From NCBI RefSeq assembly GCF_057098645.1, contig NZ_CM169472.1: 64,000 nucleotides of DNA; one strand, written 5' to 3'. The notes beneath the pieces were generated by a model that ran no database searches, had not been told where the DNA came from, and saw only the letters and a program-made list of their open reading frames with translations. A program made the translations under genes and the position numbers. Every line of letters begins with the position of its first letter. The stretch's first letter is position 1. Shown in pieces: positions 10,779-10,801 of the stretch.

Positions 10779-10801
10779 ATTAAGGATGTTGTAACTAAAG
10801 T
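10779..10801 (+). other. Replication terminus (Ter) site, TerB-like, immediately upstream of tus
   Basis: ATTAAGGATGTTGTAACTAAAGT contains the GTTGTAAC Ter core and lies 10 bp upstream of the tus start, matching the known TerB location. Confidence 0.7.

Follow-up and report, generated by a model that had tools for sequence, protein, structure and literature searches.

The window analyzed here is a stretch of 64,000 nucleotides (one strand, 5' to 3') from contig NZ_CM169472.1 of the NCBI RefSeq assembly GCF_057098645.1. Positions 10779 to 10801 on the plus strand read directly as the 23-mer ATTAAGGATGTTGTAACTAAAGT, a replication terminator with predicted binding of the protein Tus, which its exact sequence, its uniqueness and its alignment with Escherichia coli K-12 MG1655 assign to TerB. 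Upstream of the site, the gene rstB ends at position 10736. Downstream follow a spacer of 10 bp, GGTTAATATT (10802 to 10811, plus strand), which is identical in MG1655, and the gene tus (10812 to 11741, plus strand). On the basis of its open reading frame and homology, tus encodes the replication terminus site-binding protein of 309 amino acids and begins with the ATG at 10812. The list of open reading frames gives a GTG at 10800 for the same gene, which is a mechanical upstream start inside the Ter site. The gene fumC lies downstream and is convergent with tus, and the 3' ends of the two genes overlap by 4 bp (11738 to 11741), likewise in MG1655. The order rstB-Ter-tus-fumC matches the annotations of MG1655 and O157:H7, and the syntenic records call the gene tus.

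Judged by sequence identity, the window is E. coli of a non-K-12 lineage close to O145:H28 and O157:H7. Comparison by blastn gave about 99.0% identity to O157:H7 strain PV15-279 over 50 kb, and the first 25 kb are 99.8% identical to an O145:H28 genome. Several other features of the window were observed. The beginning of the window falls within a tyrosine recombinase/integrase gene (minus strand, 1 to 418 in the syntenic O157:H7 annotation), after which comes an N-terminally truncated tqsA (595 to 1500). This succession of an integrase gene and a truncated tqsA within positions 1 to 1500 suggests a prophage or island integrated in tqsA; most E. coli genomes match the window only from position 594 on. 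An IS5-like element of about 1.2 kb (18750 to 19945) is inserted in uidC and is missing from the otherwise collinear O157:H7 PV15-279. The element carries a transposase open reading frame of 326 amino acids (18818 to 19798, plus strand) between the terminal inverted repeats GGAAGGTGCGAACAAG and CTTATTCGCACCTTCC, with CTAA duplicated at both sides. In addition, rsxC contains a tandem array (36156 to 36771) of 6.4 copies of a 96-bp unit with 92% match, and in the alignment with the O157:H7 copy this array appears as staggered, self-like HSPs.

The earlier note, made from the letters of the window without database searches, had called the site a Ter site, had identified it as TerB because only 10 bp lie between it and the tus start, and had suspected a two-base variant. 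All three statements were borne out. The 23-mer is the sole match to ATTAAGGATGTTGTAACTAAAGT in the 64-kb window, even when as many as three mismatches are allowed, and shuffled sequences gave no match (0/100). The 14-base Ter core G-N-ATGTTGTAACTA, corresponding to positions 6 to 19 of the site, is found free of mismatches in the window at TerB only, where GGATGTTGTAACTA (10784 to 10797) has 0 mismatches against it. Position G6 falls at 10784 (plus strand), its partner C6 on the minus strand being the lock base, and the invariant core of positions 8 to 19 extends from 10786 to 10797 (plus strand). The bare 8-mer GTTGTAAC is present three times in the window, with 1.76 copies expected, which is chance level, and taken alone this would be consistent with a chance Ter-like motif, or with another Ter or a pseudo-Ter site that is not TerB. 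However, chance would not be expected to yield either the full 23-mer or the 14-base core, each of which occurs once in the window. The position of the site, 10 bp 5' of tus and between rstB and tus, is the one that defines TerB (PMC8707476), and a paper on the system also mentions the 10-bp region that separates tus and TerB (PMC8707476). A homologous 46-mer with at least 91.5% identity also stands beside tus in 5423 of 5426 complete E. coli genomes. A chance or pseudo-Ter origin is therefore refuted by synteny and retains practically no probability. The site is TerB because the 10-bp spacer to tus and the synteny rstB-Ter-tus-fumC are those of K-12, and nothing contradicts this assignment. 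The two other copies of GTTGTAAC, at 28279 and 57988 (minus strand), were rejected as Ter sites since the rest of the core is missing from them and their frequency is that of chance. Core matches with two to three mismatches (for example, at 45752) were also rejected; these lack bases that the core requires and are no more frequent than chance predicts. The secondary sites known as terK, terL, terY and terZ are located elsewhere on the chromosome.

The Tus encoded next to the site matches the PDB Tus chains 1ECR, 2I05 and 2I06 over its full length (E = 3e-207). It is identical to K-12 Tus, and to the crystallised protein, at 307 of 309 residues (99%), I23A and T158S being the sole differences. 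The cytosine pocket of Tus, reportedly described by Mulcair et al. in 2006, is said to consist of I79, F140, H144 and G149. Because residues 23 and 158 alone differ, these four residues as well as R198 and E49 are unaltered in the Tus of the window, and the protein encoded beside TerB thus has its DNA-binding and C6-pocket residues intact.

Reports also exist that TerB lies within the tus promoter and mediates the repression by Tus of its own transcription (PMC8707476, PMC8347550). Two putative elements of this promoter were read by eye on the plus strand of the window, a -35 element TGGTCA (10751 to 10756) located 17 nt 5' of the -10-like hexamer and an extended -10 element TGcTATAAA (10771 to 10779) whose last base is position 1 of the Ter site. 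A strict consensus promoter scan of positions 10600 to 11900 called no site; TGcTATAAA was missed because the scan needs a T at hexamer position 6. Among 16 sampled Escherichia sequences, TGGTCA is conserved in 15 and TGnTATAAA is kept in all 16, with EC42405 carrying T for C at n, and both elements are present in the genome of a cryptic clade too. The spacer between the hexamers is variable, and the conservation of the elements on either side of it supports the putative promoter. Tus bound at 10779 to 10801 would span the region from the edge of the -10 element through the likely start of tus transcription. Since the site abuts the -10 element and covers this likely start, bound Tus would repress tus, in agreement with the binding and the autoregulation known from the literature. 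A separate observation concerns the river isolate KTa005 (NZ_CP147084.1, about 1 to 1540), in which ISEcp1 is found about 30 bp upstream of TerB and has replaced the end of rstB. ISEcp1 has also altered the -35-like hexamer of this isolate to GGGTCA but has left TerB, the spacer and tus undamaged.

At the homologous place, MG1655 carries the TerB sequence AATAAGTATGTTGTAACTAAAGT. Alignment of the two 23-mers revealed exactly two differences, A2T (position 10780 of the window) and T7G (10785), and the window TerB is thus not identical to the K-12 23-mer. The earlier note had given a reference sequence and had suspected a variant at two positions, allowing that its reference might be wrong. The reference 23-mer of the note proved correct, as the MG1655 record reads identically. 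When the proposed alignment was run, it gave no exact identity with reference TerB, so that a wrong reference does not account for the variant, which is real. The possibility that the variant is an artefact, either of sequencing or assembly of the window or of a wrong reference, had some ground in the doubt that the note itself raised about its reference. It has next to none now, because the MG1655 record is identical to the reference sequence of the note, because a full-text search found AATAAGTATGTTGTAACTAAAGT printed in three papers, and because a 46-mer of the window is repeated exactly in 1255 independent complete genomes, and it is considered refuted. The 23-mer of the window and the 23-mer with AATAAGG were absent from the searchable text of papers; the published comparison gives its sequences in figures only.

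The distribution of TerB alleles was obtained with a 46-mer query that comprised the -10 region, the Ter site, the spacer and the ATG, searched against 5426 complete E. coli genomes. Full-length homologues with at least 91.5% identity were present in 5423 of these, one per genome. The K-12 type, AATAAGT with the spacer GGTTAATATT, was found in 2330 genomes (43% of 5426), and the type of the window, ATTAAGG with the same spacer, in 1255 (23%). AATAAGG occurs with two spacers, with GGTTAATATT (GGTT) in 796 genomes (15%; for example, IHE3034) and with GATTAATATT (GATT) in 567 (10%; strains S8 and 447). ATAAAGT, with a 1-bp insertion, accounts for 262 genomes (5%). Together these five main alleles cover 5210 genomes (96%), and all of them keep G6 and positions 8 to 23. 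At position 7 the five alleles are about evenly divided, with G in 2618 and T in 2592 genomes. T2 is found among the five in the allele of the window alone; FCI51 (GTTAAGG) has T2 as well. GTTAAGG and ...TAAGGT are further alleles that were sampled. The allele of the window is present, among others, in O157:H7, in O145:H28, in T7Express, which is a derivative of E. coli B, and in diverse human, animal and environmental isolates. An allele present in 23% of complete E. coli genomes and belonging to about five common ones is not rare, and in this respect the rarity implied by the earlier note did not hold. Identity with K-12 does not define the TerB locus either, because the K-12 form is present in only 43% of the complete genomes.

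Across the 16 sampled Escherichia sequences and the window, differences in TerB are confined to positions 1 to 5, 7 and 21 and to the spacer, and G6 and positions 8 to 20 are without change. A scan of species-representative genomes for the exact 22-mer ATGTTGTAACTAAAGTGGTTAA found one locus only, in Escherichia sp. MOD1-EC7003, and none in an E. coli representative. The same 22-mer is present in 89% of the complete E. coli genomes, and its lack in the representative may be due to the allele of that genome, such as one with the GATT spacer, or to limits of the genome collection that was scanned. MOD1-EC7003, a member of a cryptic clade, has the K-12-like bases A2 and T7 and the spacer GTTAATTATT; as a single outgroup it is too little to polarise the TerB alleles. 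The TerB-tus junction was also seen on one record labelled as a plasmid, and it is absent from 3 of the 5426 genomes.

The orientation of the site was considered with respect to the replication forks. TerB in the window has the same strand and neighbour genes as TerB of MG1655 and the same strand as TerC of MG1655. The GC skew of the plus strand is negative throughout positions 1 to 32000, and a fork derived from oriC therefore runs toward lower coordinates and reaches the site at position 23, which is the permissive face. By this measure the site is permissive to the fork from oriC and blocking to a fork that has passed the terminus, the blocking face being assigned as in PMC4499146. How C6 locks the complex and how the two Ter faces differ in polarity have been described (PMC4499146), and clockwise forks are reported to meet TerB as their second barrier, after TerC (PMC13220808, PMC8707476). 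In the proposed mechanism, Tus, encoded directly 3' of TerB, would bind the 23-bp site. A fork that comes from lower coordinates would reach the site at position 1 (non-permissive) and unwind the G6-C6 pair, whereupon the freed C6 would flip into the Tus cytosine pocket and the fork would be locked. A fork from the high-coordinate side, which enters at position 23 and is the normal one for this replichore, would displace Tus and pass. For the TerB of the window, Tus binding and polar fork arrest are thus predicted from the identical core and from data on K-12 (PMC8707476, PMC4499146).

The effect to be expected from A2T and T7G can be judged in part from published variation. Goodall et al. 2021 (PMC8347550) have surveyed the ter sites of 17 genomes from different phylogroups and compared them all; REL606 (B) and the O157:H7 strains TW14359, Sakai and EDL933 were part of the set. 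According to that paper, the differences between ter sites amount to 1-2 bp, are limited to positions 1 to 5, 19 to 23 and 7, and were judged harmless. The paper also states that Tus has little or no contact with the outer bases of ter and that position 7 is without base-specific Tus contact (PMC8347550, citing Coskun-Ari and Hill 1997 and Kamada 1996). A2T lies in this outer segment, and T7G would alter a base without specific contact. TerC of K-12, taken from the MG1655 record, reads ATATAGGATGTTGTAACTAATAT and carries both T2 and G7. From the natural frequency of the bases, their presence in TerC and the mutagenesis as cited in PMC8347550, A2T and T7G are probably a common and neutral polymorphism.

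A different reading is that the T2/G7 allele is functionally distinct, with an altered off-rate of Tus, an altered lock efficiency or, through the discriminator, an altered strength of the tus promoter. Both substitutions are located downstream of the putative -10 element but before the likely start site, and they neighbour the C6 lock base. From such a location they may have a small effect on promoter strength. The half-life of the lock has been reported to differ measurably among Ter sites (PMC8707476), and the allele is kept at 23% across unrelated serotypes. Should the allele be functional, carriers such as B, O157:H7 and O145:H28 would differ from K-12 in their steady-state level of Tus, or the second clockwise barrier would be leakier or tighter in them than in K-12, and results obtained with K-12 TerB oligonucleotides would not be exactly transferable to BL21-type strains. 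However, G7 is as frequent as T7 among the main alleles, and TerC of K-12, with T2 and G7, is a strong and lock-forming site (PMC8707476). A minor contribution of positions 1 to 5 is described in PMC8347550 in addition to the lack of base-specific contact at position 7, and under neutral drift with linkage the frequency of an allele would be expected to follow lineages, as it does here. A functional difference is accordingly considered improbable. Taken jointly, the evidence from the sequence and from K-12 makes us highly confident that the site is TerB of the E. coli chromosome, which would act as a polar Tus barrier and in the autoregulation of tus, and that A2T and T7G are common and probably neutral.

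The TerB allele of the window is a known element with an ordinary polymorphism, and variation of this kind has already been published (PMC8347550). TerB, its location within the promoter of tus and the fact that Ter sites tolerate change at positions 1 to 5 and 7 are already established, and strains of these lineages are already covered by the published survey (PMC8347550). The 23-mer that is regarded as canonical TerB is the K-12 allele only, with its 43% of complete genomes. Because about half of E. coli has G7, motif searches for TerB should demand neither T7 nor A2. T7Express, the B-derived strain sampled here, has the allele of the window and not that of K-12.

Compared with known systems, the TerB of the window is closest in its setting to that of MG1655, with which it shares the locus, the strand, the orientation, the flanking genes and the 10-bp spacer. 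The two sites are identical at 21 of 23 bases, including G6 and all of positions 8 to 23, and 3 more substitutions separate the two genomes within 80 bp upstream of TerB. Other natural E. coli alleles of TerB occupy the same locus and share G6 and positions 8 to 20. The survey in PMC8347550 deals with the same type of ter variation and with the same lineages as those described here, and gives no population frequencies. TerC of K-12 resembles the TerB of the window in T2 and G7, in identical positions 5 to 20, and in strand and polarity. It differs at positions 3, 4, 21 and 22 and is a separate locus, about 75 kb from TerB in K-12, that is not at a promoter. TerC is one of the six high-affinity, lock-forming sites that are bound by Tus in vivo (PMC8707476).
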